Of a stretch of 46,258 nt of DNA, positions 2,281 through 43,441 are shown one piece after another. The position numbers were made by a program, and so were the translations under genes. Below the pieces are notes generated by a model. That model saw nothing but the letters and a program-made list of their open reading frames with translations. It was not told the origin of the DNA and did not search any database. Each line of letters begins with the position of its first letter. The stretch's first letter is position 1. Source of the stretch: a virus (taxonomy: Duplodnaviria; Caudoviricetes); the IMG/VR virus record IMGVR_UViG_3300045996_000626, positions 1 to 46,258 of that record. One strand, written 5' to 3'.

Positions 2281-2416
2281 TCTCGCGGGCCGGGCGCTAC
2301 TCCGGCTGCGGGCGGTTATCGTTGCGCTCCGCTGTCAGGGAATCGAACCCTGTTAGGTTGCCTAAGCACCGTTCTCATCCATACCCAACGTGTCTGCTTT
2401 CCACGCAGCCGCGAGA
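2281..2416 (-). ncRNA. tRNA-like structured RNA element 1
   Basis: Minus strand: 8-bp closing stem TCTCGCGG/CCGCGAGA with hairpin GCCGG-AGTAGCGC-CCGGC abutting the 3' strand. Also a D-arm-like GCGTGGAAAGCAGACACG and an internal T-loop hairpin CAGGG-TTCGATT-CCCTG. Fills the intergenic gap. Confidence 0.7.
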
Positions 2417-2422
2417 AGTCTT

Positions 2423-2456
2423 AATTTAGCATAGAACGGCAAAAAGAAAAACAATA
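2423..2456 (-). promoter_or_regulatory. Putative antisense promoter for ncRNA element 1
   Basis: AT-rich minus-strand TTGTTT...TATGCTAAATT (-10 or extended -10-like) just upstream of the element's 5' stem. Confidence 0.4.
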
Positions 2457-2457
2457 A

Positions 2458-4698
2458 ATGGCCGAACTCTCCCCGTCAGACCTCCGCGCTATCCTCGCGG
2501 CGGAAAAGGCAGACGCATTAGCTGCCGTCTCCGCATCCCGGCTCTCGAAAGAGCGTGGGGACGCGATGGATTACTACCTCGGCGATGTCAGCGCAGACAT
2601 CCCCGACGAACCCGGCAGGTCCAGGGCCGTCTCCTCGGATGTGGCCGACACCATTGAAGGGCTGATGCCCTCGTTGATGGAGATATTCTGCTCCGGTGAC
2701 GAGGTGGTGAAGTTCTCCCCGGTTGGACCGGAGGACGTGCCCGCCGCAGAGCAGGAAACCGACTACGTTAATCACGTCTTTTACCAGCAGAACCCCGGCT
2801 TTCTGGTTCTCTATTCATTCATCAAAGATGCGCTTTTGCAAAAGGTCGGCATCGTCAAGGTGTGGACCGAGGAAGAAAGCGACTCAGGCCGGGAGACTTA
2901 TTACAACCAGCAGCCCGACGCGCTGGCGATGATCCTGCAGCAGCCGAATATCGAGGTTGTCGAGCACTCGGAGAACGAGGACGGCACTCACGACATCACG
3001 GTTGAAAGCAGCAAGCCCTACAAGTGCCACAAGGTCGAGCCGGTTCCCCCAGAGGAGTTCGGGATTAGCCGCCGCGCCAAGTCCATCAAGGACGCGACCT
3101 ATTGCTTTCATGAAACCACGCGCACCGTTGGCGATCTGATTGACCAGGGCTATGACGAGGATCAGGTCAAGGCGCTGCCCTCAAGCGCGGGCGATGACTC
3201 CACGGAAGCCCAGACCCGCGACACGGTAGACGAAAGCACGGGCTCGGGCGACGAGGGGCTGAACGATGCGGCCCGCGCGGTCAAAGTCACCGAGCATTAC
3301 ATCCGGATGGATTACCGCCGCGACGGCAAGACGGCGCTATATCGCGTCGTGACAGGCGGTGAACAAAGCGAGGTATTGCGTCGCGACGGCAAGCCTGAGG
3401 TAGACCAGGTTGACATGGCCCCATTTGCAGCCATGACCCCGGTAATCGTAACGCACAGATTCTTCGGACGTTCCATTGCTGACCTCGTGATGGACATCCA
3501 GCGCATCAAGACGGCGCTGATGCGGGGAATGCTCAACAACCTCTATCTCCACAACAACCCCCGCGTGGAGGTGGCCCAGGCCCACGTTACCGATCAGACG
3601 CTTGATGACCTGCTTGTGTCGCGTCCGGGCGGCGTGGTTCGCACCAAAACACCGGGCGGCCTCAACTGGCAGGTTGTCCCAGACATTACCGGCTCGATCT
3701 ACCCGGCCCTTGAGTACATGGACACCACGCGCGAACTCCGCACGGGTGTCACCCGCTCAGGGCAGGGCATCGACGCCTCGGCCTTACAGAACCAGAGCGC
3801 AACGGCGGTCAATCAGCAGTTCACGGCGGCCCAAGCCCGCATGAAGCTGATCGCCCGCATCTTTGCCGAGACTGGCATTAAAGACCTGTTTCTCCTGCTG
3901 CACGCGGAAATCCGCAAGCATGGCGATCAGGTGGAGACTGTGCGCCTGCGCAATCAGTGGGTGCAGGTTGACCCGAGGCATTGGAAAACCCGCTCGGACC
4001 TCACGATTGACGTGGGCCTCGGCGCGGGTGGCAAGCAACAGGAACTCGCCAACCTGATGCAAGTCGCCACCATGCAGAAGGAATTGCTCATGGGCGGCAT
4101 GAGCAATTTGGTCACGCCCGAGAACATCTACGCCACGGCGAAAGAGTTAACGCGCCTGATTGGCAAGAAAGACCCGGACACGTTCTTCTCGAACCCTGAA
4201 GGCCAACCCCCGCCCGAGCCGCCGCCCGATCCCAAGATGCTGGAAGTCCAGCTTAAGGAGAAGGAACTGGAACTCAAGGGCCAAGAAGTCCAGATGAAGG
4301 CCCAGCTTGATGCGCAAGCCGACGAGCGCAAGGCGCAAATCGAGCAGGTGCAGGCACAAGCGGACATCGCCACGCAGGACCGCAAGACGCAGGCCGATTT
4401 GTTGCTGGCCCAGCAGAAGTTCGAGCTAGAAAAAGAACTGAAGCTGATGGATCACCAACTCAAGCGCGAGCAGCACGCCGCCGATATTGAGATGAAGCGC
4501 GAATTGCACGGGCAAACCCTGCAACGCGAGCACTTCAGCATGGAAGCGAACGCGGAAGCGCATGCCCACAAGATGGAACAGGCCGGGGGCAAGGCGAAGC
4601 CCAGGGCCAAGGCACCGTTGCCCGGCACGCCTGAGAAAAAGACCCGCAAGCGGATCAAGACCCCGAGCGGCAAATACTACGAGATCGAGGAAGATTAA
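2458..4698 (+). CDS. Portal protein (P22/SU10-like, with C-terminal coiled-coil barrel)
   Basis: 746 aa after the terminase; motifs VSSDVADTIEGLMPSLMEIF, DALLQKVGIVKV, HRFFGRSIADLVMDIQRIKT, IARIFAETG. Confidence 0.93.
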   Translation: MAELSPSDLRAILAAEKADALAAVSASRLSKERGDAMDYYLGDVSADIPDEPGRSRAVSSDVADTIEGLMPSLMEIFCSGDEVVKFSPVGPEDVPAAEQETDYVNHVFYQQNPGFLVLYSFIKDALLQKVGIVKVWTEEESDSGRETYYNQQPDALAMILQQPNIEVVEHSENEDGTHDITVESSKPYKCHKVEPVPPEEFGISRRAKSIKDATYCFHETTRTVGDLIDQGYDEDQVKALPSSAGDDSTEAQTRDTVDESTGSGDEGLNDAARAVKVTEHYIRMDYRRDGKTALYRVVTGGEQSEVLRRDGKPEVDQVDMAPFAAMTPVIVTHRFFGRSIADLVMDIQRIKTALMRGMLNNLYLHNNPRVEVAQAHVTDQTLDDLLVSRPGGVVRTKTPGGLNWQVVPDITGSIYPALEYMDTTRELRTGVTRSGQGIDASALQNQSATAVNQQFTAAQARMKLIARIFAETGIKDLFLLLHAEIRKHGDQVETVRLRNQWVQVDPRHWKTRSDLTIDVGLGAGGKQQELANLMQVATMQKELLMGGMSNLVTPENIYATAKELTRLIGKKDPDTFFSNPEGQPPPEPPPDPKMLEVQLKEKELELKGQEVQMKAQLDAQADERKAQIEQVQAQADIATQDRKTQADLLLAQQKFELEKELKLMDHQLKREQHAADIEMKRELHGQTLQREHFSMEANAEAHAHKMEQAGGKAKPRAKAPLPGTPEKKTRKRIKTPSGKYYEIEED

Positions 4699-5126
4699 TG
4701 GCCACATATACCAAATATGAGACGGCGATTGAGAAGCTTTGCAACAAGCTGATCGACGCCTTCGGCACGACTGACACATGGAAGGCCGTTATTCACACCG
4801 ACGCTCCGGTTGTGGCGACCGATTCCACCCTGACCGACCTGACGCAGATTTCAGGTGTTAATGGTTATACCACGGACGGCGATAACGCCACGTTCAACAG
4901 CACCCGCTCAGGCGGCACGGTAACGGCCACCGGGACGGATATCGTCTGGACCGCCTCGGGCGGCAACCTCGGCAACAGCACGACCGGGCGCTATGTGACG
5001 CTGTATGACGATACGTCTACGGCGAACGACCTGTGGTGTTCGTGGGATTACGGCGCGACCTTCACGGTGGCGACGGGCGAGACATTCACCCTCGACTTCG
5101 GCGCATCCATCTTCACGATTGCCTAA
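4698..5126 (+). CDS. Virion structural protein, Thr/Gly-rich beta protein
   Basis: Coupled to the portal stop; ends WDYGATFTVATGETFTLDF, a pattern common in phage structural proteins. Confidence 0.7.
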   Translation: MATYTKYETAIEKLCNKLIDAFGTTDTWKAVIHTDAPVVATDSTLTDLTQISGVNGYTTDGDNATFNSTRSGGTVTATGTDIVWTASGGNLGNSTTGRYVTLYDDTSTANDLWCSWDYGATFTVATGETFTLDFGASIFTIA

Positions 5127-5245
5127 TGCTAGAAATCTTAGTCGCGGCATACATCTGGGCCTGTATTGGCATCTTGGCGCTGATGCCGTTATTTGGCATG
5201 GCCCTCCTTGTGGCGATGATAGTTGAAGAAATACGCGGGGCCTAA
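5126..5245 (+). CDS. Small hydrophobic peptide (39 aa)
   Basis: TAATG coupling at both ends; MLEILVAAYIWACIGILALMPLFGMALLVAMIVEEIRGA. Confidence 0.55.
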   Translation: MLEILVAAYIWACIGILALMPLFGMALLVAMIVEEIRGA

Positions 5246-5505
5246 TGCAAGAACTGGCCTGCAAGCGCTATCCGGTCAAGAAGCTAATGGGGCTGCTGCC
5301 GGTCAAATACCTTGAGGCGTTGGAGCAGAACCAGAAGATTGCGTCCTGCTGCCGGCATCCCGAGAACCACGAGATCGAGGCGTTCAAGTCGAAGCCCGAC
5401 GAGAAAGCCCCCGACATCTATATCTTTCACTGTAGCTGTGGCCGCCAGCATCGACGCTTTTGCATTGGCGGCGGAGATGTGAGGCCGGTCTGGGAAGTGG
5501 CCTAG
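5245..5505 (+). CDS. Cys/His-rich hypothetical protein
   Basis: Coupled start; CCRH...HCSCGRQH...FC may bind metal. Confidence 0.7.
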   Translation: MQELACKRYPVKKLMGLLPVKYLEALEQNQKIASCCRHPENHEIEAFKSKPDEKAPDIYIFHCSCGRQHRRFCIGGGDVRPVWEVA

Positions 5506-5508
5506 ACT

Positions 5509-7077
5509 ATGGCATTTGGAGCACTGAAAGGAGTTTGCGCTGGCTCGGTTGCCAGCATCGTCAACCCGTTCCCGACAACGGTATTTCAGACCGGCTCCGG
5601 CGCGGTTGTCGTTGGCGATCTGGTGTTCTGCGTTGTCGGTCAGCAAACCAACCTTACAGCGACAGCTTGCGCCGATAACCTCGGCAACACCTACACCGCA
5701 ACCAACGCCGGGACCGACGCGGGCACCGTATCAGGCCGGGCCTTTTACAGCCGCGTCACCGTTGCCGGGACGATTACCGCCGTCCAGGCGACGACCACGG
5801 CAAGCACCAACGATGCGGTGATTATCGCGGCGATCTTCGAGGGGCCGTTCGTTCCCTCTCCGGTCGATGCGAACATTGCGAATGCCACGGGCGACCTGAC
5901 CTCGCCCTTCACCTGTCCCAATACCGGCGTGCTGGCGCAGGCCAGTGAGCTTGTTCTGTGCTGGGGTGTGTCGAACGGTCCCGATAGCTGGCTGGCGACT
6001 TCGCCCAACCTGCTCGCCGGGGAGCAAATCAGGTCAGCCGTCGCGGCCAAGATCGGTTATCAGGTTGTCTCGGCCACCACGGCTATCGCTCCTGAGTTTA
6101 CTAGCGGCGTCAATCCAAGTGTTTGCCTACTGGGCACCACGACATTCAAGGCGGCGAAAAGCCTTGCTGCTGATGCTGGCTCCTATGCCTTAACCGGCAC
6201 GGCGGCGACCACCAAGGTCGGATTCAAGGTCGCTGGCGCGGGAGGCTCCTACGCCCTAAGCGGTACGGATGCCACGCTGACGATAGCGTCAGCCGCCAAG
6301 ATACTGACGGCAGACGGCGGAACCTACGCCCTTAGTGGTACGGCTGCCTCGCTAGAGCATGGCTGGGTGGTGGGGGCCAATGCTGGCTCTTACGCCCTGA
6401 CCGGCACCGCTGCTTCGACCCTGCACGCATGGCGCGTTTCTGCGGCGGGCGGCAGTTACGCCCTCACCGGCACCGACGCCACGATGGCGATTGCCAGTGA
6501 CAAGCTGCTGGCTGCCGATGGCGGCAGTTACAGCCTGACCGGCACGGCGGCTTCGCTCCTGCATACCTGGGAAGTCGCAGCCGAAGCGGGCAGCTACGCA
6601 TTAACCGGCACCGCTGCCACGCTGACGGCAACGTCATCCGAGCCCGAGGCCCCCCCGGAAGTGGGCGGCGGCGGGATTTCAGGCGGCTCGTTCTCCCGCA
6701 GGCAATGGGAGGCGATCCGCAAGGCCCGCAAGGCGCAAGAGCGGGCAGAAGAAAAGGCCAAGGAACTGCCGACCCGCACGCAGCGGGAACGGGTGGAACT
6801 GGCGGCTGAGATTTCGGCCAAGGCTATCGAGCTAGTCCAGGCCGCCGAGGAAAAGACCTCGCTGGTCAAGCTGACGCTGGCGCTTGATGCTGCTGCCTCC
6901 GCGCAAACCGCACGGGTGAGGCTGGCTGCGGCAAGCAAGGCCATCGCAGAGGCCAAGGCGCTGATTGCGCGTGTGGCCAAAGAGAAAGCTGACGCTGAGA
7001 TTGCACGCGTGGCCAAAGAGAAGGCTGACGCCGACGAGGAGGAGGAAGCCATCGCGCTCCTGTTGTTGCTGACATGA
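5509..7077 (+). CDS. Repeat-containing virion (head fibre/decoration-like) protein
   Basis: Seven A.GGSYALTGT.A repeats spaced about 23-25 aa apart; charged helical C-terminus ending EEEEAIALLLLLT. Confidence 0.75.
   Translation: MAFGALKGVCAGSVASIVNPFPTTVFQTGSGAVVVGDLVFCVVGQQTNLTATACADNLGNTYTATNAGTDAGTVSGRAFYSRVTVAGTITAVQATTTASTNDAVIIAAIFEGPFVPSPVDANIANATGDLTSPFTCPNTGVLAQASELVLCWGVSNGPDSWLATSPNLLAGEQIRSAVAAKIGYQVVSATTAIAPEFTSGVNPSVCLLGTTTFKAAKSLAADAGSYALTGTAATTKVGFKVAGAGGSYALSGTDATLTIASAAKILTADGGTYALSGTAASLEHGWVVGANAGSYALTGTAASTLHAWRVSAAGGSYALTGTDATMAIASDKLLAADGGSYSLTGTAASLLHTWEVAAEAGSYALTGTAATLTATSSEPEAPPEVGGGGISGGSFSRRQWEAIRKARKAQERAEEKAKELPTRTQRERVELAAEISAKAIELVQAAEEKTSLVKLTLALDAAASAQTARVRLAAASKAIAEAKALIARVAKEKADAEIARVAKEKADADEEEEAIALLLLLT
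6964..7035 (+). repeat. Imperfect 36-bp in-frame tandem duplication (IARVAKEKADA x2)
   Basis: Seen directly; copies differ at synonymous positions. Confidence 0.85.
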
Positions 7078-7346
7078 CAGACGAGGACAAAACCCAGTTA
7101 GCCATCTCTCGCGGTGCCCGCGCCAAGGCGCTGCTCGGGGATGACCTTTTGACCGAGGCGTTCACAACGCTTGAGGCGGAATATCTCAAGGCGTGGCGAG
7201 CAACCGGCGTCAAGCAGATGGAGGAGCGGGAACGCTTCTGGCAAGCCATTCAGCTTCTTGGGTTGGTGCGCGACCATCTCGGGTTTGTTGTAGGAGACGG
7301 CAAGATCGCGCAAGCAGAACTCGACAGGCTCAAGGGGATGAAATGA
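7074..7346 (+). CDS. Conserved small head-module protein upstream of the scaffold
   Basis: RG.RAKALL.DDLL.EAF...W......EERER pattern and position. Confidence 0.8.
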   Translation: MTDEDKTQLAISRGARAKALLGDDLLTEAFTTLEAEYLKAWRATGVKQMEERERFWQAIQLLGLVRDHLGFVVGDGKIAQAELDRLKGMK

Positions 7347-7531
7347 GGGCTGAACCAATCCGCTATTCGATTGAGGAGGGCGGAGAATGGCACGAATGGA
7401 AGAAGTGGCCAGAAAGCCCCAAGCCGCACATTCACGCCGTTCAGTTTAGCGACTACTCCATTTTCGACACAGTTAACGGCTGGCGGAAAAAGCCAGTTGT
7501 GCGCGTGAAGGCAGTAACCAAACGGGCATAA
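7343..7531 (+). CDS. Hypothetical protein (62 aa)
   Basis: ATGA overlap with the upstream stop; AGGGG RBS. Confidence 0.55.
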   Translation: MRAEPIRYSIEEGGEWHEWKKWPESPKPHIHAVQFSDYSIFDTVNGWRKKPVVRVKAVTKRA

Positions 7532-7555
7532 GCCCCAACAACAAGAAGGACAACA

Positions 7556-8668
7556 ATGTCACTCGATAACGTCGCCCCCAGCGACGTGAGCGCCCCCGCA
7601 TCCGCGCCCGCTCCCGTCTCTGCCCCGGCTGATACCTCACCGATCTCCGCCCGCGATGCAGCAGCAGCCCTCTCAAATGCACGCTGGGAAAAGGCAAGAA
7701 AAGCCCAACAGGATGCTCCGCCTGCCGCTCCCGTAGAGCAGCCAGCCGAGCAACCGCTCGAAGAATTAGCCCAAGAGGCTGACGCCGCCCCTCCAGAAGA
7801 GGCTACCGGCGAGACGCAAGAGGCCGAACCGGCAGATACGCTGCCGCCCATCGAGCCTCCCAGGTCATGGACGACTGAGGAAAAGGACCGATTTCGGAGC
7901 CTCCCACGCGAAACGCAGGAATACCTAGCGCAACGCGAGCAGGACCGTGACCGATCCGTTCGTCAGTCCCAAAACGAGGCCGCTGAACTTAAAAAGGCTA
8001 TTGCAGCCGAAAAGCAAGCGGTGGAACAGGCAAGGCAACAGTACGAGCAAGCGTTACCCGCCCTTCTGCAAAGCGTGCAGGAGGCAATGGCGGGTGAGTT
8101 CGCAGACATCATAACAACTGCGGACGTTATAAATCTCTCAAAAGAGGATCCATTCCGTTTCAACCAGTGGCAGGCACACCAGATGAAGGTCGCCGCCGTA
8201 GCCCAGGAAGTCGAGGCCGCAAAGCACCGACAGGTAACGGAGTTTCAGTCCAAGTGGGCCGAGTTTGCCCAGCGTGAGGACAGCAAGGTGATGGAAGCAA
8301 TTCCAGAGCTTGCCGACCCCACACAGCGAGAGACGATCCAAAAAAGCGCAGTCAATTACCTTCGGGAACTTGGCTTCACTGACCAAGAGTTGGGGCAGGC
8401 GTGGAACGGGCAGGCTTCGATCAGCCCGCGCGATCACCGCTTCCAGATTCTTGTCCGTGACGCCGCCAAGTACCGCGAGGCACAGGCGACAGCAAAGAAG
8501 ACGTTGACAACTGCCAAGCCGCTTCCGCCCGTTCAGAAGCCCGGTGTTGCTCCGCCGAAGGGCGCGAGTAACGCAGCACTCATTGATAGCCTGAGCAAGA
8601 AGCTCTCACAAACAGGAGACTGGAAGGTAGCCGCGCAACTGCGGATCGCCAAACGCGCCTCCAAATAA
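7556..8668 (+). CDS. Capsid scaffolding protein
   Basis: Acidic Pro/Ala-rich N-terminus, IEPPRSW motif and coiled coil; directly before the capsid gene. Confidence 0.88.
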   Translation: MSLDNVAPSDVSAPASAPAPVSAPADTSPISARDAAAALSNARWEKARKAQQDAPPAAPVEQPAEQPLEELAQEADAAPPEEATGETQEAEPADTLPPIEPPRSWTTEEKDRFRSLPRETQEYLAQREQDRDRSVRQSQNEAAELKKAIAAEKQAVEQARQQYEQALPALLQSVQEAMAGEFADIITTADVINLSKEDPFRFNQWQAHQMKVAAVAQEVEAAKHRQVTEFQSKWAEFAQREDSKVMEAIPELADPTQRETIQKSAVNYLRELGFTDQELGQAWNGQASISPRDHRFQILVRDAAKYREAQATAKKTLTTAKPLPPVQKPGVAPPKGASNAALIDSLSKKLSQTGDWKVAAQLRIAKRASK

Positions 8669-8716
8669 CAACGGGGCCAAAGAGCCCCCAATAACAATAA
8701 GAAACGAGAAACGACA

Positions 8717-9679: not shown

Positions 9680-9744
9680 CCATAGGAACGGGGGCCGCGC
9701 CAATGCGGTCCCCAACCCATAACAAACAATAAGGGGACACTCCT

Positions 9745-10305: not shown

Positions 10306-10336
10306 TAACAACAAGAGCGGGTTAACCGCCGAACCT

Positions 10337-10371: not shown

Positions 10372-10391
10372 CACTCTGAGGAAACAAATCA

Positions 10392-15438: not shown

Positions 15439-15444
15439 GGCACA

Positions 15445-24839: not shown

Positions 24840-26267
24840 TCACCGATTGGCTGGCCTGTTTTCGATTGCACGACAGACCTCACCCGCACAGGCGTAGAGT
24901 TCTTCAATGCGGGCCTCGACGGCATCGGCAAAATCATCGGGCAACTGACCGACAACGTTGTCCAGTTCCTCCGGGTCAGTCGCGAGATCGTAGTATTCGG
25001 TTTCGTCATTGTCATACAGCACATAGGTCCAGAAACGGGTAGCGATGGCGCGGTAGGCGTCCCCGGTGGTGGATTGCACGCCCCCTTCGCTGTCGAGTGC
25101 CGGCTTGCCCTGAACCAGTAGTTGATTGCGCCATGTTGCCGGGTTCTGTCCTCGCAACAGGGGAAGAAGCGAGCGCCCATCAACCCATTCAGGGATGGGC
25201 TTGCCGGCGATCTGCATGAAAGTCGGCATCAAGTCGGCGTTGGTGACGATGTGGTGGTCAATGCCGGGAACGACGCCCGGCCCCCATATCAGCATGGTGG
25301 ACTGAATGCTCTCGCGGTACGGCACCAGCTTGTTGCTGATGCGGTGCTCGCCCCACAGGAATCCGTTGTCGCTGGCATAGACGATATAGGTGTTGTCTAG
25401 CTGGCCGGTTGCTTCCAGCGTTTCCCAGATCGTCTTGACCGCCTTGTCGATGCTAAGGCCGGATTCCAGCATCCGCCGCCATTGGGTCTGCAACGAGGCA
25501 ATCTGCGTTGCCGTGAACTTGGGCGTTGAGAAAACAGCGGTTGGCTTGTCGGTTACGTCCTGTTCGTTGAACGACCATTTACGCTGCGGCGCAAGCGGTT
25601 CGGAGAGAAAGTAGTTCCTGAACTCGTTTGCCGGCACGGCGGGAAGATGCGGCGCGGGCGGCGCAAATAAAAGCGCGAATGGCCGAGGGCTCTGCCTGAT
25701 GGTGGTGGCAACAAGCTCGGCCAGAACGTTCGTGGAATAGGTGGCGTCAGTATCGCCCCGATGCTCGACCGTCCGACCGTTATGGTTGGCGTTCCAGTTG
25801 AACATATTCCCGGCCCCTTGGGTGAAGCCGTACCAGCGGTGCCACCCATCGGGAACGCGCGGCGTGCTGTCGTCTGAGTAGCCGTTGAGGAACTTGCCAA
25901 ACATCCCGGTGAAGTAATCGTAACGCAACTCATTCGCCCATGTTTTGCTGTCGAGCCTACGCGACATGAAGCCCTGATAACCGCCGTCCGGCCCCTTGTT
26001 GTTGGTGACGCCGTGATTGTGGGGATACATCCCGGTGAGCAGGGATGTGCGCGAGGGGCAGCAAAGCGACTGCGTGAAGATCGCGGTATCGAAGCGCCGC
26101 GCCAAGTGCATCTTGGACCGCAGGAACGGCATGAACGGACGCCCGGCATTGCTGACGCCGGTAATCATCTGCTCGGTCTGGTCGTCGGTAAGAATAACGA
26201 TGATGTTCGGACTGGCCGAGGCAGGCGTAAAACCTAGTAAAACAAGGATTAAAGCTAACAGTCTCAT
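24840..26267 (-). CDS. Secreted formylglycine-dependent sulfatase (Cys-type; N-acetylglucosamine-6-sulfatase-like)
   Basis: Signal peptide MRLLALILVLLGFTPASA; PNIIVILTDDQ, CCPSRTSLLTG.YPHNHG, GKFLNGY, APH, SDNG..GEH, K..PY.ES, N.DL.PT, EYYDL..DP.EL.N; GGAG RBS before ATG 26267. Confidence 0.93.
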   Translation of the reverse strand: MRLLALILVLLGFTPASASPNIIVILTDDQTEQMITGVSNAGRPFMPFLRSKMHLARRFDTAIFTQSLCCPSRTSLLTGMYPHNHGVTNNKGPDGGYQGFMSRRLDSKTWANELRYDYFTGMFGKFLNGYSDDSTPRVPDGWHRWYGFTQGAGNMFNWNANHNGRTVEHRGDTDATYSTNVLAELVATTIRQSPRPFALLFAPPAPHLPAVPANEFRNYFLSEPLAPQRKWSFNEQDVTDKPTAVFSTPKFTATQIASLQTQWRRMLESGLSIDKAVKTIWETLEATGQLDNTYIVYASDNGFLWGEHRISNKLVPYRESIQSTMLIWGPGVVPGIDHHIVTNADLMPTFMQIAGKPIPEWVDGRSLLPLLRGQNPATWRNQLLVQGKPALDSEGGVQSTTGDAYRAIATRFWTYVLYDNDETEYYDLATDPEELDNVVGQLPDDFADAVEARIEELYACAGEVCRAIENRPANR

Positions 26268-26304
26268 TTTAGGCTCCCCAAGAACAACAAAAGGACGACA
26301 AGTC

Positions 26305-26415
26305 ATGCTTACCCTAAAATCATGGTTTAGTAAAGCGGTTAAATTGGTGAAGGCGCACCCGTATATTGCGGTTGCCGTTCTTCTCGGCGCTGGCGCGCTC
26401 CTGCTTCTCAAATAG
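26305..26415 (+). CDS. Small membrane peptide (36 aa)
   Basis: AAGGA RBS; MLTLKSWFSKAVKLVKAHPYIAVAVLLGAGALLLLK. Confidence 0.6.
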   Translation: MLTLKSWFSKAVKLVKAHPYIAVAVLLGAGALLLLK

Positions 26416-26419
26416 TTCA

Positions 26420-26779
26420 ATGCGCCTGCTTTCTCTGGGGGCCGTCCTTGTGGCGGCCCTTTTCCTTTGCGCCAAGCCTCCGGCCTTCGCTCTCCTCCAT
26501 GTGCCGGAGCCTCCCGCAAAATACGTCAAGCCCTACAAGGGCAAGTTGATCTTGCACAACGTTGATGAGCGCACCCTGAGCGCGTGGAGCATATGCACCC
26601 CGGTGGCCTATGCCTGCGCCTTCATGCACGAACTCCCCGAGCGATGCACGGTCTGGATGCCAGCCATCGGCACCGTCTACTCAAACGGGCAAGTTGTCAC
26701 CGCCGCCGCTTACAAGCGCCTGCTTCGGCATGAGATGGCGCATTGCAACGGCTGGCCCCCGAGTCATCCCAAAGCATAG
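26420..26779 (+). CDS. Secreted HExxH putative zinc metallopeptidase
   Basis: Signal-like N-terminus, several Cys, LLRHEMAHCNGW...H. Confidence 0.75.
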   Translation: MRLLSLGAVLVAALFLCAKPPAFALLHVPEPPAKYVKPYKGKLILHNVDERTLSAWSICTPVAYACAFMHELPERCTVWMPAIGTVYSNGQVVTAAAYKRLLRHEMAHCNGWPPSHPKA

Positions 26780-34761: not shown

Positions 34762-34762
34762 T

Positions 34763-35458: not shown

Positions 35459-35462
35459 CGTC

Positions 35463-36886: not shown

Positions 36887-36887
36887 G

Positions 36888-37223
36888 TCAGTGGCCCTCT
36901 GCTTTGGCGATGGCGGCTGCGACACGGCAGCCAGTGGTGTGGCCAGTCGATGGTTGCCCACCACACTCGCCGCACTTGAAGCGCGGCCCGACAAACTCGA
37001 CGGCCCGCAGTGCCCGCAGCATGTCAGGCGCGGCGGCTATAAGGCGGGCGTTGGCTTCGGCCTCTGCGTGGGATGACAAGAACGGCGTACAGTGAACGAC
37101 GCTCGCCTTGTCGGCATGGATTGCGAACGAACCATCCTTGTGCATTGGGCCAACGCGCCACGGTCCCGGCGTGTGATCACCAGTGGTGAGATTGCTTAGA
37201 GTGTTGTCGGTGGTTGTCCCCAT
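36888..37223 (-). CDS. Conserved phage early protein
   Basis: HTPGPW...ANARLIAAAPDML..L, C.ECG....H..GC, AAIAKAE. Confidence 0.8.
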   Translation of the reverse strand: MGTTTDNTLSNLTTGDHTPGPWRVGPMHKDGSFAIHADKASVVHCTPFLSSHAEAEANARLIAAAPDMLRALRAVEFVGPRFKCGECGGQPSTGHTTGCRVAAAIAKAEGH

Positions 37224-37263
37224 TTCACTCTCCCCATTCGTGTGATTGCTTGGAACCAACGCG

Positions 37264-37437
37264 CTATGACGCCCTCGCGTCCATCAGTCGGCTCCAGAAA
37301 TGCGCCCGCACGAACAAGTCACGGCGAAGCGGGCCGCGAGCTTGGCGGATTGTTTTCATGTCGGCGCGAAGTAGCGTCATCTGCATTTCGCGAGGCAGAG
37401 AACGCAGCGGGTTAGATGGCGTTAGATGTTTGGTCAT
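37264..37437 (-). CDS. Hypothetical protein
   Basis: GGAG RBS before MTKHLTP... Confidence 0.5.
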   Translation of the reverse strand: MTKHLTPSNPLRSLPREMQMTLLRADMKTIRQARGPLRRDLFVRAHFWSRLMDARAS

Positions 37438-37438
37438 T

Positions 37439-37606
37439 TCACTCTCCGGTTTCGTAGTTGAACCAACTGGCTGGCTTGGCGTAGTCAGCATCGAGATACG
37501 CATCATCGAACCACTTAGGCTTGGACTTGCGTTGTGAGAGCTTGTCAGCCTTCTCCACCTCTGCGAGCCATTGGGCGATTGCTTTGTCCTCGTCTGCTGT
37601 GGTCAT
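37439..37606 (-). CDS. Hypothetical protein (55 aa)
   Basis: Not in the track; MTTADEDKAIAQWLAEVEK...; ATGA overlap. Confidence 0.55.
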   Translation of the reverse strand: MTTADEDKAIAQWLAEVEKADKLSQRKSKPKWFDDAYLDADYAKPASWFNYETGE

Positions 37607-37806
37607 GGCTGGCGCTCCGCTTTCGCGATGGCGGCGCGCATCTGTTCATTTACTTCAATGGAAAATGCGGTGAAGTAGTCCGGGTCCTGTCGCCCCACCT
37701 CGTCGGTGGCCGCCTTCAGCGCCGTCAGCAGTTCACCGTTGACTTCACGAAGCCGAAGAATCTCAGCCTTTGTCTCCCAAGCGACAATGAGTTCTGCTGG
37801 TGTCAT
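37603..37806 (-). CDS. First gene of the leftward early operon
   Basis: GGAG/AGGA RBS downstream of the leftward promoter; ELLTALK...RAAIAKAE. Confidence 0.7.
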   Translation of the reverse strand: MTPAELIVAWETKAEILRLREVNGELLTALKAATDEVGRQDPDYFTAFSIEVNEQMRAAIAKAERQP

Positions 37807-37831
37807 GTCCTGCTCCCTTGATCTATGAATG

Positions 37832-37860
37832 AAGGTAAACCCGATTTACCGGACTGTCAA
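37832..37860 (-). promoter_or_regulatory. Leftward early promoter with a 17-bp palindromic operator
   Basis: TTGACA-17-TACCTT on the minus strand; GGTAAACCCGATTTACC at 37834-37850. Confidence 0.75.
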
Positions 37861-37985
37861 CAGCAAAAACAGGCGCAAATCAAAAATAATTGTAGACCCC
37901 CAGGTAAAGGGGTGCCACCGTCGCCGCCATAATGGTTAACAAATACCGCTTTCTGAACGTCTATTCATATAATCAAATTAGGTAC

Positions 37986-37994
37986 TTATCCACA
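37986..37994 (+). promoter_or_regulatory. Consensus DnaA box
   Basis: TTATCCACA, 23 bp upstream of the rightward -35. Confidence 0.5.
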
Positions 37995-38017
37995 GGTGTG
38001 GCACCATCATCTTAGGC

Positions 38018-38048
38018 TTGACACCCTCCGGTAATCGTGTATTACCTA
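38018..38048 (+). promoter_or_regulatory. Rightward early promoter with a 17-bp palindromic operator
   Basis: TTGACA at 38018; GGTAATCGTGTATTACC at 38030-38046. Confidence 0.7.
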
Positions 38049-38053
38049 GCATT

Positions 38054-38287
38054 ATGAGCAGCAAATCACGCAGAGCCATCACCAACAAAGCCATCAAGGA
38101 AGCTGGCGGCGGTGCCTCCCTGGCGCGCAAGCTCGGCCTCGGATCGCGGCAGGCGGTTTATATGTGGAATGACATCCCGGTCGAACACGTCATCAAGGTT
38201 GAGCGGATCACCGGCATTCCGCGCGAGCAGCTTAGGCCCGACATCTATCCACCGGCGAAAGAACACGCGGAGGAATCATGCTCATAG
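38054..38287 (+). CDS. Cro-like HTH regulator (YdaS/Cro family)
   Basis: AI..AGG...LARKLG...QAVY.W..IP......ER.TGIPR..LRPDIY; no evident RBS, possibly leaderless. Confidence 0.88.
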   Translation: MSSKSRRAITNKAIKEAGGGASLARKLGLGSRQAVYMWNDIPVEHVIKVERITGIPREQLRPDIYPPAKEHAEESCS

Positions 38288-38640
38288 CGAACTGGATTCT
38301 GCTTTATGTTTGCTTGTGCCTGCTATTCTACTGGGTAGCATTTGGAGCCGTCCAGGACGGGGAATGAAGCTTGCAGGCGGGGGTTCACTGGAGTGGCCCC
38401 AGCTTTAACGCCGGACGAACAGGCCCGCTGGGAGCCTGTGCAAGACAATCCCAGCACCCTTGGAGGGGAACCCAGGGGCGTTAAGTAACAAGTAAAAACA
38501 TCACGCCTTTGGGGGGCTGATGTCGGTCCAGTTGTGTCTTGGAAAGTGCGGCTTTTGCCGCGTGCCTAGCCGCATGTCTTGTTGAGAGAACAAATGGTTA
38601 ACAAACGTTCACCGAAGTGTGGCCAATGGAGGGTGTAACA

Positions 38641-39210
38641 ATGTCACTAGTCGATAGGCAGGAAGCAGCAAAGCGGGACCATCTCGCGCGAAAAAAGCGG
38701 CTATGGGGAACGCCGTCGAACGTTGTGCCGTTCTCGCCATCCAACGATCCTCCATCGGGACAAGCGAGCAGGCCTGCTGTTGTTCCCGTCAACGATGAAA
38801 CTCAGCGATTAAAAGACGAAATCCACGGGCTATCCACACGTGTCGCGGTGCTGGAAGCAAGACTAGAAAACTTCACCAAGCAAGCAGAGCACGGCTGGCG
38901 GGCCTTCGACAAACATCCCGCCAAGGAAATCGCCACCGCCGTCGCTAAATTCTATCAAATCCGCCTGTCGGAAATGATGAGCAGGACGCGACCGCCCCAC
39001 GTCATTCGCCCCCGCCATGTCTCCTACTACTTAGCGCGGCAGCTTTCCGGCAGGGGGCTCGAAAGCATCGCCTACGCCCTGCATCGCGACCACACCTCGG
39101 TTATGCACGGCATCAAGAAGATCACGGCGGAACTGGAAACCGACACCCAACTGCAAGCGGACATTGCCGCGCTGCTCACCATCCTGGGGGAGAACCCAAA
39201 TGGGGAGTAG
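38641..39210 (+). CDS. DnaA C-terminal (domain IV) HTH protein
   Basis: IA.AVA.FY......M.S..R......PRH...YLAR.L....L..IA....RDHTSVMHG.KKI. Confidence 0.88.
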   Translation: MSLVDRQEAAKRDHLARKKRLWGTPSNVVPFSPSNDPPSGQASRPAVVPVNDETQRLKDEIHGLSTRVAVLEARLENFTKQAEHGWRAFDKHPAKEIATAVAKFYQIRLSEMMSRTRPPHVIRPRHVSYYLARQLSGRGLESIAYALHRDHTSVMHGIKKITAELETDTQLQADIAALLTILGENPNGE

Positions 39211-39655
39211 ATACGTGAACATCTGGACTGCTGACATCATCCGCGACTTGATGGCGATGACGGAGGATAAGCAGAACACCCGCGTTATCGCGGCCACCCT
39301 CTCCGAGCGTTACGGCGTTCGCATCACCCGAAACATGATTATCGGGAAGGCTCGACGCATTGGCATTGCGCTGAACTCCAACAAGTGCGGCGCGCCCAAG
39401 GGCACCCGCCGAGCCGCCAAGTCCGACAAGGACAAGCTCTTTCACTTCCGCGCTGTCTACAAGCCGAGGGAATACACGCCGGCCATTGAGCCATTGCGTG
39501 TTCCGTTCATGGAAATCCGGTTCGGCCAACAGTGCCGGGAGGTTGTCGGCACGGGTGGGGATGCTCTGGCGATCTACTGCGGTCATCCAACGGATGGGGG
39601 GTCTCCGTGGTGTCCATCTTGCCGGGATAGGAACACACAGGAGAGGGCGGCGTGA
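39200..39655 (+). CDS. gcrA: GcrA-family cell-cycle regulator homologue
   Basis: WT...I..L......IA..L......TRN.IIGK..R.G; C-terminal CR..VG.......CG.......WC..C. Confidence 0.85.
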   Translation: MGSRYVNIWTADIIRDLMAMTEDKQNTRVIAATLSERYGVRITRNMIIGKARRIGIALNSNKCGAPKGTRRAAKSDKDKLFHFRAVYKPREYTPAIEPLRVPFMEIRFGQQCREVVGTGGDALAIYCGHPTDGGSPWCPSCRDRNTQERAA

Positions 39656-39843
39656 TGAAAGTCGTCGTCACACTCAGCGATCTCGACCGAGAGAAAATTG
39701 CCGTGGAGATTTTGCGGGACAGCGCAAAGACATGTCTAAGCGTAGACCCCTCCGATGACTATGGGCGGCGCTACGCGGCGGCGGTCAACATGGTCCTCGC
39801 CCACTTTGGCGGCAAGCCCGTCCGCATCCCGAGGGCGAAATGA
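39652..39843 (+). CDS. Hypothetical protein
   Basis: Overlapping start and stop with both neighbours. Confidence 0.6.
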   Translation: MMKVVVTLSDLDREKIAVEILRDSAKTCLSVDPSDDYGRRYAAAVNMVLAHFGGKPVRIPRAK

Positions 39844-40238
39844 CCCGCCCCGTTCCAGATATTCCGTTCAAGCTACCGAACCCGGTAACGCTAACGCTTC
39901 CCTATCCACCCTCCACCAATGGGATTTGGGTTCGCACCAAGCGGGGGGGGGTGGGGAAGTCCAACGAATACAACGCATGGCTGGAGCATGTGGGCTGGGT
40001 CATCGCACAGGAAAAGCCAGCAAAGATTCCCGGCAAATACAGGCTGACCATCGAGGCCACCCGCCCGGACAAGCGCAAGCGCGACATCGACAATCTCATC
40101 AAGGCGACCAGCGATGCGCTGCAAAAGTTCAGTGTGATCGAGGATGACCATCTTTGCCAATTCGTCTCCGCCCAATGGGTCAATGGGATGTGTACCAACG
40201 AGGCGGGCATTCGCGTCACCATTGAGCCGGAGGGATAG
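39840..40238 (+). CDS. rusA: RusA Holliday junction resolvase
   Basis: LPYPPSTN..W, PDKRKRDIDN.IK...DAL....VIEDD. Confidence 0.92.
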   Translation: MTRPVPDIPFKLPNPVTLTLPYPPSTNGIWVRTKRGGVGKSNEYNAWLEHVGWVIAQEKPAKIPGKYRLTIEATRPDKRKRDIDNLIKATSDALQKFSVIEDDHLCQFVSAQWVNGMCTNEAGIRVTIEPEG

Positions 40239-40496
40239 ATGAGCGACGTGGGGGAGCTTTGGCGGCGACTGATTGCCACCAGCGACATGACACCGAATGC
40301 AGCCATGCAGTTCATTTCCGAGTGCATAGACCTTGGCATCAAGGCGGCTGCCTTTCGTGATGATGTGGAGAAGGCAAGGCGCGCCATCAACGCAGAGAAG
40401 GCAGAGGCCGAGCGCAAGATGATTCGGGAGGCCCACGGCAAGCTCCGCATTGTAGCGGACGACCAGGGACATAAGGACGAGGAGGGGGGAGAATGA
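40239..40496 (+). CDS. Hypothetical protein
   Basis: GGAGGG RBS; packed in the operon. Confidence 0.65.
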   Translation: MSDVGELWRRLIATSDMTPNAAMQFISECIDLGIKAAAFRDDVEKARRAINAEKAEAERKMIREAHGKLRIVADDQGHKDEEGGE

Positions 40497-41035
40497 GCCA
40501 GCGCGAGAGCGGTTACGAGCGGAAAGAGCGCGACCTTTACGAAACCCCTGAGTGGGTGACGGTGGCGCTGTTGCCGCATATCCGGTCGGGCATCCAAGAC
40601 GTATGGGAGCCGGCGTGCGGTTCGGGGAAGATGGTCCGCGCCCTGTCTGACGGCACTCCCTACATTGTCCGCGCTACCGACATAGCCGACGACCCGCCGC
40701 TAGACTTTCTGGAAACCGCTGGCCTCGCGGACGCGGTAATTACCAATCCGCCTTATACCCTCGCCTCTGAGTTTATTTGGCACGCATTGAAGACCACGCG
40801 AGAGCGCGGCGGCGTTGTGGCGATGCTTCTGCGGACCGATTTCGACCACGCCAAGACGCGCCTGCATCTGTTTGACCGCGAGCAGTTCGCAAAAAAGCTT
40901 GTCCTGTTGAGGCGCATTCGCTGGTTTGAGGACAGCAAGGGCTCTCCGTCCTTCAACCACGCGTGGTTCATTTGGGATTGGAAGCATAAGGGACCGCCCG
41001 CGTTGGCATACGCGACGGGGGAGGGTGGACAATGA
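40493..41035 (+). CDS. Orphan amino (N6-adenine/N4-cytosine) DNA methyltransferase
   Basis: DLYETP, WEPACGSG (SAM binding), ITNPPY (catalytic), AWFIWD. Confidence 0.88.
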   Translation: MSQRESGYERKERDLYETPEWVTVALLPHIRSGIQDVWEPACGSGKMVRALSDGTPYIVRATDIADDPPLDFLETAGLADAVITNPPYTLASEFIWHALKTTRERGGVVAMLLRTDFDHAKTRLHLFDREQFAKKLVLLRRIRWFEDSKGSPSFNHAWFIWDWKHKGPPALAYATGEGGQ

Positions 41036-41781
41036 GCCTCACACCAAAAAACTGGTCGGACTTCCAGCACTACAAAGACCGCTCGCCAATCTGGATAAAG
41101 CTGCATCGCAGCTTGCTCGATAACTATGAGTTTCACCGCTTGCCGGTTGCTAGCAGGGCGCTAGCACCAATGCTCTGGCTGCTAGCAAGTGAGTACGAGG
41201 GGGGCAAGATCACCATGTCCCTCGATGCCATCGCCTTCCGCCTCCGCATGCCGGTCGAGGAGCTATCAACTGGGCTTAAGCCTTTGATTGAAAGCGACTT
41301 CTTTAATGATGATAGCGACATGCTAGCAGGCTGCTATCACGATGCTATCCCAGAGATAGAGAGAGAGACAGAGACACAAGATAAGACAGAGACAGATATA
41401 CGGGTGGTCGCTATCGCGACGCACCCCTCTGCCGAGCAATTTGAAAAGTTCAAGGCGGCCTATCCCAAGCGAGGGGCTGCCAACCCGTGGAAGCCAGCGC
41501 TCCGCATCTTCGCGGCAGCCCTGAAACGTGGGGAGCATCCAGAAAGGATCATCGAAGGGGCTGCGGCCTATCGCGAGGAATGCGACAGGCTGAAAATCAT
41601 TGGCACCGAAAAGGTTGCCCAGGCCCAGACGTGGCTCAATCAGGACCGCTGGAAAGATTATCTCGACGGCAGCGAGGCCGATACCGCGAGGCGTGCGGAG
41701 GCTTACGCGGTGGCGGAAGCGAAGGGTTGGCGGCTGATTGAGGGCAAGTGGGTGAAGCCGGAAGCAAGTAGCGTTGCGTAA
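41032..41781 (+). CDS. Phage replication initiation protein
   Basis: KNW..FQHYKDR.P.WIKLH..LL N-terminus; FE.F..AYPKR...A.TWLNQ.RW.D C-terminus. Confidence 0.85.
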   Translation: MSLTPKNWSDFQHYKDRSPIWIKLHRSLLDNYEFHRLPVASRALAPMLWLLASEYEGGKITMSLDAIAFRLRMPVEELSTGLKPLIESDFFNDDSDMLAGCYHDAIPEIERETETQDKTETDIRVVAIATHPSAEQFEKFKAAYPKRGAANPWKPALRIFAAALKRGEHPERIIEGAAAYREECDRLKIIGTEKVAQAQTWLNQDRWKDYLDGSEADTARRAEAYAVAEAKGWRLIEGKWVKPEASSVA

Positions 41782-41817
41782 GTAAACAGGGGATTAGCGC
41801 AATGCTAGGGGGACCAA

Positions 41818-42390
41818 ATGGCAAGGCGAAAACTCAAAAAGGCCGTCACTTTAGCGGCCACAGTCAAGGGGGTTAAAACACATGACCGAAGGGCGATTGA
41901 CGTTGCGACAGGTGCGCGCGTTGCGGTTGTTATCGTTGATGACCCCTATGAACACGGGGCCAAAATTACGGTTGTCCGCAATCTCAGGCATGACCCGCTG
42001 GCGGACATGCAGAACTCCGGGCACATCGACCAGTGCCAGTATCTTGCGGGCCGGCATTGGCAGCGTGCATGGGACTTGAGCCAAGGCAAGAGCGTGAGGG
42101 CGATAGACCCGTCCAAGGAATGCGTGGATGGGGGCCAGATCGCTCAGTCCACGGTGACGGATGCACAAATCAAGGCATTTGGCGAGTTAGCCAAGGCCAT
42201 GACGGACCTTGGGATGATTGGCGAATCACTGGTCAAAGATGTGCTGGGGGAAAACCTATCGCTTTGGCAATGCGCCGTTAAGCGGGGGCAAACCTCGGAG
42301 GCGGCGCGGAAGTTCTTTGGGCAACGGTTCCGGGAATGTCTGGATACGCTGGCGGTTACGTTTGGCTATGCGGCCAAGCCATGTGGATAA
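41818..42390 (+). CDS. Putative late-gene regulator (Q-like antiterminator position)
   Basis: Last gene before a promoter plus strong terminator; DPL......G.I...QY.AG...VDGG...C-terminal HTH...RECLD.LA..FG. Confidence 0.65.
   Translation: MARRKLKKAVTLAATVKGVKTHDRRAIDVATGARVAVVIVDDPYEHGAKITVVRNLRHDPLADMQNSGHIDQCQYLAGRHWQRAWDLSQGKSVRAIDPSKECVDGGQIAQSTVTDAQIKAFGELAKAMTDLGMIGESLVKDVLGENLSLWQCAVKRGQTSEAARKFFGQRFRECLDTLAVTFGYAAKPCG
42382..42390 (-). promoter_or_regulatory. Consensus DnaA box
   Basis: TGTGGATAA, 24 bp upstream of the putative late -35. Confidence 0.45.
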
Positions 42391-42414
42391 CTCTGATAAC
42401 TCCACAATATCTAG

Positions 42415-42447
42415 TTGACTGGCTGGCCCATATGGTGTATGTAAATT
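42415..42447 (+). promoter_or_regulatory. Putative late promoter (pR'-like)
   Basis: TTGACT-17-TATGTA(AAT) immediately after the Q-like gene. Confidence 0.6.
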
Positions 42448-42495
42448 GTCATTGTTCCGAATTGCGCCTCTGCTCCAGCCGGGTTGAGGCAAAGC

Positions 42496-42535
42496 AAGAC
42501 CGATTAGCCTCACCGCTAGTCGGTCTTTTGCGTTT
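42496..42535 (+). terminator. Terminator/attenuator hairpin (tR'-like)
   Basis: 13-bp stem AAGACCGATTAGC-CTCACC-GCTAGTCGGTCTT followed by TTGCGTTT. Confidence 0.7.
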
Positions 42536-42539
42536 AGCT

Positions 42540-42598
42540 TCGCGACCCTGCGGGGATAGCGCTACGATCAGCAAAGTCCGGGCCGGCCCGGCTCGCGA
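42540..42598 (+). ncRNA. tRNA-like structured RNA element 3 (short variant)
   Basis: TCGCGA/TCGCGA closing stem, CCGG..CCGG hairpin near the 3' strand; 3' end GCCCGGCTCGCGATA resembles elements 1 and 2. Confidence 0.5.
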
Positions 42599-42605
42599 TA
42601 CCGAA

Positions 42606-42715
42606 TCAGGCGGCACTCAGTCTCCCCCCTATTATCGACGCGCCTCCAAGTTCTTATCCCTCCCTTAGACTGGATGGGCAGCGGTCCATATAGGCAAAGG
42701 TTGAGTGTCGCCTGA
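42606..42715 (+). ncRNA. Long-stem structured RNA with pyrimidine-rich interior
   Basis: 18-bp stem TCAGGCGGCACTCAGTCT/AGGTTGAGTGTCGCCTGA, fully paired on the + strand using three G-U pairs. Confidence 0.6.
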
Positions 42716-42733
42716 CACCTTCAAAGGCTCCCG

Positions 42734-42997
42734 ATGACGCCGCCATGTTCATGCAAGACGGGCCAATGCCGCGCTGACGGCGATGCGGGCTGCAAATGGC
42801 GAGCCGAGTGGAAGCGTTCTGACCCTGATGGGTACGCTGAACAGGTGTTGCGTAGCCGGATAGAGAACGAAGTTGCAGAACTAAGGCTGTGCCGCTTCGC
42901 GAAGCTGCACAGAAAGATAGAGCGTAACGAGAGGCTACGCGCAGCAATCGCTCAGGTGACCGCACAGAAGGCGGCTGCATCTTCAGAGTCAGATTGA
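42734..42997 (+). CDS. Hypothetical protein
   Basis: Cys cluster at the N-terminus followed by a helix. Confidence 0.55.
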   Translation: MTPPCSCKTGQCRADGDAGCKWRAEWKRSDPDGYAEQVLRSRIENEVAELRLCRFAKLHRKIERNERLRAAIAQVTAQKAAASSESD

Positions 42998-43002
42998 ACC
43001 TA

Positions 43003-43287
43003 ATGGCCATCATCCTCCCCTTCCCAGACCGGACACAGACCCCGAGATGCAAGCAGGAAAGGTCAGGCGAGGTTCTCATCCTGCCGGTGGTTTACAGCGA
43101 ACGCCAGTCCGCTGGCTCCACGAAAGCGGCGTTGCTCAAACCTATACCGATTATTCGGCTGTTAGAAGAACTGCCAGCCAACCGCCGCGCGAAAGTAAAG
43201 GCGCGAGCGAGGGCGCTAATCAAAAGATCATCAGCCAAGGGGAACCGGAGAAAGACCGGCACCAAGGCTGATAGCCGTCCGGCATAA
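43003..43287 (+). CDS. Hypothetical basic protein
   Basis: MAIILPFP...EVLILPVV pattern seen in alphaproteobacterial small proteins. Confidence 0.5.
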   Translation: MAIILPFPDRTQTPRCKQERSGEVLILPVVYSERQSAGSTKAALLKPIPIIRLLEELPANRRAKVKARARALIKRSSAKGNRRKTGTKADSRPA

Positions 43288-43305
43288 ATCCCGAGGCGGC
43301 TTCAA

Positions 43306-43441
43306 TTCTCGCGGAGACGCATTCGAAGCGTCCGTCAGCACCCCGGACTATAACGGGATTAAGTTGCCCGCTCTGGTCACAGCACGCGGCCTGTCGGGGA
43401 AAAACATGACCGTGCGCCGGGTAATGCCCGGCCCGCGAGAA
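43306..43441 (+). ncRNA. tRNA-like structured RNA element 2
   Basis: 9-bp closing stem TTCTCGCGG/CCGCGAGAA; GCCGG-GTAATGC-CCGGC abutting the 3' strand; 5' hairpin GACGC-ATTCGAA-GCGTC; intergenic. Confidence 0.7.

Follow-up and report, generated by a model that had tools for sequence, protein, structure and literature searches.

The stretch of DNA analysed here, in the following called the window, is a complete virus record (IMGVR_UViG_3300045996_000626; 46,258 nucleotides, nt) that carries phage genes for terminase, portal, capsid, lysis, replication and a GcrA-like protein. The GcrA-like and other genes point to an alphaproteobacterial host. Three elements between these genes had been proposed in a first-pass annotation as a family of transfer RNA (tRNA) mimics, in which a common scaffold of acceptor stem and T-arm holds different interiors. 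Their 15-nt 3' ends are present at 2281-2295 (minus strand; element 1), 43426-43440 (plus strand; element 2) and 42586-42600 (plus strand; element 3), together with the complementary 5' strands. ARAGORN found no tRNA genes in the window, and an Rfam search of the whole window gave no match over the three elements; neither program thus returned the known Rfam family or canonical tRNA that had been named in advance as removing the novelty of the proposal. Run with a lowered threshold, ARAGORN produced scattered and inconsistent calls on both strands, which were rejected. According to our analysis, element 1 and likely element 2 belong to a large, real and apparently undescribed family of phage elements that escapes both Rfam and ARAGORN; membership of element 3 is unsupported.

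Element 1 (2280-2417, minus strand) is intergenic and a full member of the family, with a frame of the type termed A below. A covariance model of 70 aligned members (model R1), built without element 1, matches it with 66.8 bits (E-value 2.6e-11). Its closing stem, which takes the position of the acceptor stem, pairs 2409-2417 (5' strand) with 2280-2288 (3' strand), and no CCA follows. The D-arm (2388-2406; 5-bp stem and 9-nt loop GAAAGCAGA) and the T-arm (2289-2306; 5-bp stem and 8-nt loop AGTAGCGC) were assigned by the family consensus, both of type A, so that closing stem, D-arm, T-arm and matched loop types are all found. Folding recovered the predicted 5-bp hairpin stacked on a closing stem of 8-9 bp in element 1 (z-score -1.55 against shuffles) as in element 2 (-2.86). 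The closing stem and the T-arm had accordingly been described correctly, whereas the hairpin at the D-arm position had been overlooked in both elements; in element 1 it corresponds to the most conserved part of the family. Between the arms lies the cargo (2308-2387), which contains a canonical T-loop hairpin (2336-2352). It has a homologue in L654, with two compensatory pairs between them, and is therefore not unique. An extended -10-like box (TGcTAAATT, 2423-2431, minus strand) stands at the modal distance of the family from the closing stem; a sigma-70 scan made no call there. Element 1 runs antisense to both flanking genes, and no open reading frame (ORF) of at least 60 amino acids overlaps it. 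Its site differs in the related phage L008, and blastn against named phages returned T-loop words only. The stop codon of a 380-amino-acid gene between terminase and portal (1132-2274, plus strand; weak ART-PolyVal match below the Pfam cut-off) lies 5 nt from the 3' end of element 1.

Homologues with covariation, whose absence had been named as a sign of chance hairpins, could be found in phage sequences. A first paired pattern derived from elements 1 and 2 matched 118 viral stretches, mostly by chance, of which about 12 shared a D-arm-like hairpin directly after the closing stem. Follow-up scans used the T-arm and then the D-arm alone (two exact D-arm words), the latter giving an unbiased set. 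We estimate that about 1,100 IMG/VR stretches contain either word (about 420 and 710; 121 and 120 listed). Among the matches listed, 224 distinct D-arm hits remained after dropping 11 duplicates and 7 near an end, and in 210 of these 224 a T-arm follows downstream, together with a closing strand that can pair with the sequence upstream of the same hit, as opposed to 6 of 222 in a control with the 5' strand displaced. The set kept comprises 196 elements with a plausible T-loop, 192 of them non-redundant.

Three parts make up the frame common to these elements: a closing stem of 7-25 bp, which pairs in every case whatever its sequence, a D-arm of 5 bp, and a T-arm whose loop mostly has 8 nt. Contiguous closing stems of 7-9 bp are found in 126 of the 192 members, those of 16-25 bp in 19. 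Its sequence is unconstrained except for G7-C66; positions 1-7 are paired in 98-100%, a value inflated by selection on pairing. The T-stem has 5 bp in 99% of cells, and the combined acceptor-T branch spans 12 to 30 bp, exceeding 12 bp in most members. In the alignment of 70 members, 96.5% of cells are paired and 12 of the 19 pairs change on both sides, with 289 double-changed cells versus 81 in shuffles and 47-59 when the strands were slid. The D-stem is fixed by the search pattern in this alignment; D-stem swaps were seen in T-anchored members. An excess of G-U (64) over A-C pairs (3) fixes the RNA strand of the family. The opposite strand, on which element 2 shows a canonical-looking T-loop, was considered for elements 1 and 2 and ruled out by the family promoter position, the G-U asymmetry and the co-orientation with tRNA genes. 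All pair types occur at position 3:70, with G-T or T-G in 3 of 192 members. There is no CCA peak after the closing stem in the unbiased set of 192, and CCA is not generally encoded; a peak after 9-bp stems (10 of 124), which disappears here, was due to search patterns that favoured one subtype. With neither a fixed stem length nor a general CCA, and with many promoters at the 5' end, the 8/5-like geometry recognised by RNase P finds little support as the key to these elements, contrary to what had been suggested. Rfam searches of 20, 20 and 15 family loci gave flanking tRNAs and weak matches elsewhere only.

A second module precedes 13 of 301 elements elsewhere (L467, L212, L236, L249, L369, L375, L365, L320, L376, L241, L386, L218 and L304) and follows the element in L276 and L386; it is absent from the window. 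It is an imperfect stem with three regularly spaced mismatches that encloses variable hairpins. Its 3' strand is the same stretch as the 5' closing strand of the element, so that the two folds are mutually exclusive.

The elbow exists in two versions. The type of the D-loop tracks that of the T-loop, which defines two frame types, A and B. Type B is tRNA-like with one extra base: its D-loop contains GG and its 8-nt T-loop contains TC(A/G)A. The loops of type A are non-canonical, with a D-loop of 9 nt. C at T-loop position 58 is found in 95 of 95 type A but in 2 of 97 type B frames. The base combination between D-loop and T-loop in type A is C:G in 150 cases, T:A in 5, T:G in 2 and C:A in none, with 6 not parsed and no correction for kinship. 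From this covariation we infer that D-loop and T-loop would touch and the RNA adopt an L-shaped fold, with a canonical contact in type B and an altered one in type A.

The inner part, or cargo, measures about 30-190 nt and is mostly unique: 301 non-redundant interiors fall into 282 clusters. The doubtful elements L455, L460, L239 and L447 and the mis-parsed L221 were left out of this clustering and of the interior folding test; the same five stayed in the count of the CCA peak (10 of 124) and in that of flanking orientation given below. Of the ten multi-member cargo clusters, five mix type A and type B frames, which indicates that frame and cargo change partners. Recurrent cargos keep their fold, one cargo family of three sequences showing ten compensatory pairs. 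Multi-branch cargos are represented by L646, L590 and L796 and by the L570 group. Canonical T-loops occur in 12 of 301 interiors (1.0 expected), and the tetraloop word CGAAAG is found 31 times (11.6 expected); the Shine-Dalgarno word is depleted (36 versus 57 expected). Hammerhead, sarcin-ricin and CsrA words are not enriched in interiors. Pieces of tRNAs without a normal anticodon arm, or circularly permuted, are nested in the frames of L209, L215, L588, L670 and L762, and in L212, L215, L373 and L424 inserts lie also inside the D-loop. An array behind a phrog_21451 gene in L221 holds at least four units, namely two short non-canonical ones, one full and one split frame. About 530 nt appear to lie between the two halves of one frame there (1564-2142, minus strand), and the cargo of L636 is among the folds nested in this insert. 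The view that the elements form a modular scaffold mimicking tRNA, with changing cargo and outside any named family, is thus supported by the pairing of the frame, the cargo clusters and the empty Rfam search.

In 33 of 182 members (6.6 expected) we found a TANNNT box that begins 18-23 nt upstream of G7, most often at 18-19 nt. Its position would place the start of transcription at the first pair of the closing stem. In 15 of 123 loci with 700-nt flanks we found tRNA genes, 41 on the same strand as the element and none on the opposite one; 9 of 192 members have a tRNA gene within 60 nt. The neighbouring genes vary (antiterminators, terminases, lysis genes, integrases), and no constant enzyme gene was seen beside the elements in the 148 of 198 neighbouring ORFs that were scanned, against PHROGs only. 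Orientation to the flanking genes is mixed, coding bias being co-oriented on both sides in 40 of 101 loci according to crude ORF calls. The elements are accessory, being present or absent at a given site among related phages.

Unannotated members were detected by model R1 in Pseudomonas phage Persinger, Caulobacter phage DMCA (PQ480021.1, 25552-25688), Ochrobactrum phage POI1126, where the element sits in a tRNA array, and Iodobacter phage PhiPLPE (58-74 bits), and in phage pCB2047-A (31 bits). Pattern hits in GTDB, some of which are due to chance, are mostly from Alphaproteobacteria, and in one alphaproteobacterial order at least 5 of 150 further genomes match when 25 candidates a genome are scored. 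One family member used as query found no match in E. coli genomes, and the best match of model R1 in 80 terminase-related loci reached 20.3 bits.

Element 2 (43306-43441, plus strand) is a likely divergent member with a 9-bp closing stem as in element 1. Model R1 gives it a borderline score of 18.4 bits (E-value 0.058), the second best in the window, with exact ends; in a second scoring scheme it obtained 17.6 bits, and one of four control strands reached 17.1. It has an exact 15-mer in common with element 1, which chance does not explain (mean of 0.0 in 100 Markov controls). The stems are present, the sequence of the D-arm deviates, and the loops of the D-position hairpin (43316-43332; ATTCGAA) and of the T-arm (43416-43432; GTAATGC) are complementary (ATT and AAT) where type A loops covary. 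This loop pair recurs in L481. Element 2 is missing from the close relative L001. A pattern scan with its T-arm gave the architecture in 1 of 60 distinct matches, and a metagenome scan returned the same contig. Because of the exact stem shared with element 1, the insertion relative to L001 and the complementary loops seen also in L481, element 2 is very probably a relative of the element 1 family. Directly upstream lies a conserved element of two hairpins (43230-43303, plus strand; z-score -4.38), the second of which is terminator-like; L001 has the same fold, followed there by a U-tract. This two-hairpin element is common to L001 and two soil contigs, with different downstream sequence in each, which marks the place as a hot spot for inserts.

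For element 3 (42540-42600, plus strand), a possible short degenerate unit, the evidence is mostly negative. Its 3' end matches at only 13 of 15 positions, for which the chance rate is 0.43 per window (100 Markov controls), its closing stem is a 6-bp palindrome, and its fold is no better than shuffles (z-scores +0.44 and +0.63). It is absent from the 28 matches of model R1 in the window at E-values up to 10 and was not found by the second scoring scheme either, so that the membership of all three elements, as originally proposed, is not supported. A phrog_21451-family gene (41818-42390) is followed by a promoter-like site read by eye (TTGACT, 17 nt, TATGTA; 42415-42443, plus strand), at which a promoter scan made no call, and by a terminator-like hairpin (42496-42527, plus strand) that ends 12 nt before element 3. 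L221 has a TTGACT site at the equivalent place, and the position of element 3 behind the terminator resembles that of the L221 array. No relatives of the phrog_21451 gene could be confirmed; that of L221 belongs to the same PHROG without a BLAST match. We keep element 3 as a candidate because it follows the terminator of the late leader and because L221 has short units too; it might at most be a decayed or minimal unit, which we hold to be somewhat less likely than not.

Some further observations concern the window at large. A sulfatase gene (24840-26519, minus strand) is opposed to the late operon in the manner of a moron-like insertion. A gene with a DnaA C-terminal helix-turn-helix is followed by the GcrA-like gene (38617-39655, plus strand), which suggests that the cell cycle of the host is controlled. 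Both ends of the record (1-374 and 45700-46258) appear to carry the end of the terminase gene, due to either a terminal repeat or an assembly overlap. In about 14 viral contigs (L492, L496, L506, L507, L509, L514, L516, L518, L519, L528, L530, L547, L552 and L555) we noted a recurrent G+C-rich hairpin with conserved flanks, whose architecture is unrelated to the tRNA-frame family. Two DNA sequencing runs cover the window in fragments and leave most of element 2 uncovered; no RNA sequencing run among the runs listed contained the queried stretch. Literature listings and the openings of abstracts gave no description of a tRNA-frame family, queries with sequence words leading to unrelated papers; an unnamed fragment could sit in the supplements of PMC10690425 and PMC5737381, and the six supplementary files covered for the former contain no match.

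How could such elements work? Element 1, and likely element 2, are predicted to be genes for small RNAs in which a tRNA-shaped frame surrounds a variable folded insert. We consider it highly likely from the sequence that the elements are transcribed, whether a promoter of their own, read-through or a surrounding tRNA array is responsible. The product would have a paired 5' end and a compact L-shaped elbow. Paired 5' ends and compact elbows slow the decay of RNA in bacteria; by analogy with engineered tRNA scaffolds, they would rather probably protect this RNA as well. Inserts would be exchanged by recombination in the conserved arms, and the insert would likely function in trans, serving RNA-binding proteins of the host (e.g. 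defence or translation factors) as bait or ligand. Our preferred explanation, put forward tentatively, is thus a frame that stabilises and displays swappable RNA folds as baits or decoys for host proteins. We prefer the decoy function because hyper-variable accessory content of phages is typical of genes in an arms race. Several points weigh against it. The percentages of pairing are too high because members were selected for pairing, and counts are uncorrected for kinship. The -10 box is found in only 18% of members. Interiors as a whole do not outfold the flanking DNA (median z-score -0.47 versus -0.46 for 119 and 112 sequences, crude shuffle), they are not enriched in matches to the E. coli ribosomal RNA, RNase P RNA or transfer-messenger RNA (tmRNA) loci, and the cargo families have no match in Rfam. 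The interiors are mostly singletons, for which reason selection on them is seen for few. L481, the only other element with the loops of element 2, was undetected by model R1. Finally, D and T arms that hardly vary may be a sign that activity resides in the frame itself.

This last point leads to the foremost alternative, rather unlikely in our opinion, in which an anticodon-less tRNA mimic binds or titrates proteins that read the elbow or the acceptor (RNase P, the CCA-adding enzyme, tRNA-targeting toxins or sensors), the interior being a tolerated spacer. It would explain why phages of distant hosts have nearly identical D-arm and T-arm sequences and why members sit in tRNA arrays; the lack of outfolding in interiors and a CCA after the 9-bp stem plus one base in 8 of 32 members of the window's stem subtype fit as well. 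On the other hand, stem length varies and a CCA peak is missing, which makes charging or a ruler enzyme (PMC4919913) an unlikely purpose; the loops of type A are non-canonical, and some cargo families keep complex folds. Anticodon nucleases, for which decoys had been suggested in the first-pass annotation, read the anticodon arm: protection against OLD and retron Eco7 depended on it (PMC12445682, PMC11555353). The absence of this arm from the frame argues against such decoys. An improbable option is that the elements are cis-acting, t-element-like marks for processing or stabilising long late transcripts, cut by RNase P, RNase III or RNase Z. This idea, which the earlier annotation had also raised, is in line with the location of elements 2 and 3 downstream of terminator-like hairpins in the late leader, with the existence of closely spaced tandem units, and with the long perfect stems in 19 of 192 members, which could be RNase III sites. 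Against it stand element 1, which runs antisense to both neighbouring genes and has a -10 box of its own, and the mixed orientation of the family, and a cutting mark needs no conserved folded insert.

That the family is a selfish or neutral DNA cassette, a miniature mobile element or recombination boundary without RNA function, is quite improbable. Presence or absence at the same site in related phages, nested and tandem copies, and conserved ends around a variable middle would be expected of it, but terminal repeats of mobile elements keep their sequence, whereas the closing stem of the family is unconstrained in sequence. Nor would a cassette account for the one-strand G-U excess, the loop-loop covariation, the promoters and the strict co-orientation with tRNA genes, and no constant enzyme gene lies beside the elements. 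Least probable is an insert serving as antisense guide to phage or host messages. The interior is variable, and one of seven interiors tested has a 15-nt match to its own genome (reached by 3 of 200 shuffles), but the other six are unremarkable (14 to 195 of 200 shuffles), the anti-Shine-Dalgarno word is not enriched (19 versus 19.8 expected), and inserts are hairpin-rich and conserved by structure. We therefore rank the frame with swappable baits first, followed by the frame as bait, the processing mark, the DNA cassette and the antisense guide.

In its widest form, which is unlikely as a whole, the swappable-bait explanation would amount to a natural RNA display system of temperate and lytic phages from many bacterial groups, in which one conserved tRNA-shaped frame carries hundreds of swapped folds that, as decoys or aptamers, neutralise host defence proteins or signalling molecules. 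The inserts, swapped by recombination, would then be tRNA elbows, permuted tRNAs, riboswitch-like multi-branch folds and nested frames of up to about 530 nt, and the system would be the RNA counterpart of anti-defence protein morons. If the arrangement of frame plus cargo holds, nature employs the same scaffold trick as RNA engineers do, hundreds of new folded RNAs can be collected by way of the frame, and type A provides an alternative elbow and a new chassis for stable RNA expression. As the family is common, escapes ARAGORN and Rfam and lacks annotation in cultured phages, these proposals are directly testable. They also touch on a long-standing open question, the role of phage tRNA-like RNAs such as RnaC and RnaD of T4.

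Among known systems, canonical tRNAs (RF00005) have a 7-bp acceptor stem, a 7-nt T-loop and an anticodon arm, in contrast to the closing stem of 7-25 bp, the mostly 8-nt T-loop and the variable interior of the family, over whose elements neither a tRNA covariance model nor ARAGORN made a call. The tertiary contact between D-loop and T-loop is, judging by covariation only, a shared feature. Allo-tRNAs of the 8/4 and 9/3 type, found in phages and proteobacteria, likewise have longer acceptor stems, but they keep a 12-bp acceptor branch, an anticodon arm and a decoding function (PMC5389517), whereas in the family the branch spans 12 to 30 bp, of which the T-stem makes up 5, and an anticodon arm is missing. 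tmRNA (RF00023) resembles the family in that a tRNA-like domain surrounds a large functional interior; the family lacks its fixed G3-U70, CCA and tag frame, has a paired D-stem, and gave no tmRNA call over the elements with ARAGORN or Rfam. YrlA Y RNAs (RF02553) are non-decoding, also occur in phages and combine tRNA-like D and T arms with a long terminal stem. Their T-arm precedes the D-arm and their gene lies beside that of Ro60 (PMC4201824), whereas the order in the family is D-arm, insert, T-arm, the permuted order appearing only in the cargo of L215. With stem order and T-loop different, no YrlA match, and no TROVE gene among the 30 window proteins (Pfam; the 148 family neighbours were scanned against PHROGs only), the notion of Y-RNA-like molecules finds no support. 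RnaC and RnaD of T4 (species 1 and 2 RNAs; NC_000866.4, 70908-71171) are non-coding RNAs of 120-140 nt in a tRNA cluster with unknown roles (PMC3014915). They are comparable to some family members as non-decoding RNAs in phage tRNA arrays, and RnaC ends in a T-arm without an anticodon arm in the usual place. RnaC differs by its canonical 7-nt T-loop and the lack of the family D-arm, it is not known as a frame with exchanged inserts, and model R1 has no match in the T4 tRNA cluster. For the presumed mode of action there is an artificial parallel: tRNA scaffolds engineered for recombinant RNA retain the acceptor stem and both the D-arm and the T-arm, while any RNA can replace the anticodon region and is protected (PMC3753655). 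This scaffold has a canonical 7-bp acceptor, a 7-nt T-loop and CCA, whereas the family described here is natural and combines a variable stem and an 8-nt T-loop with two elbow types and with inserts that are found also in the D-loop.

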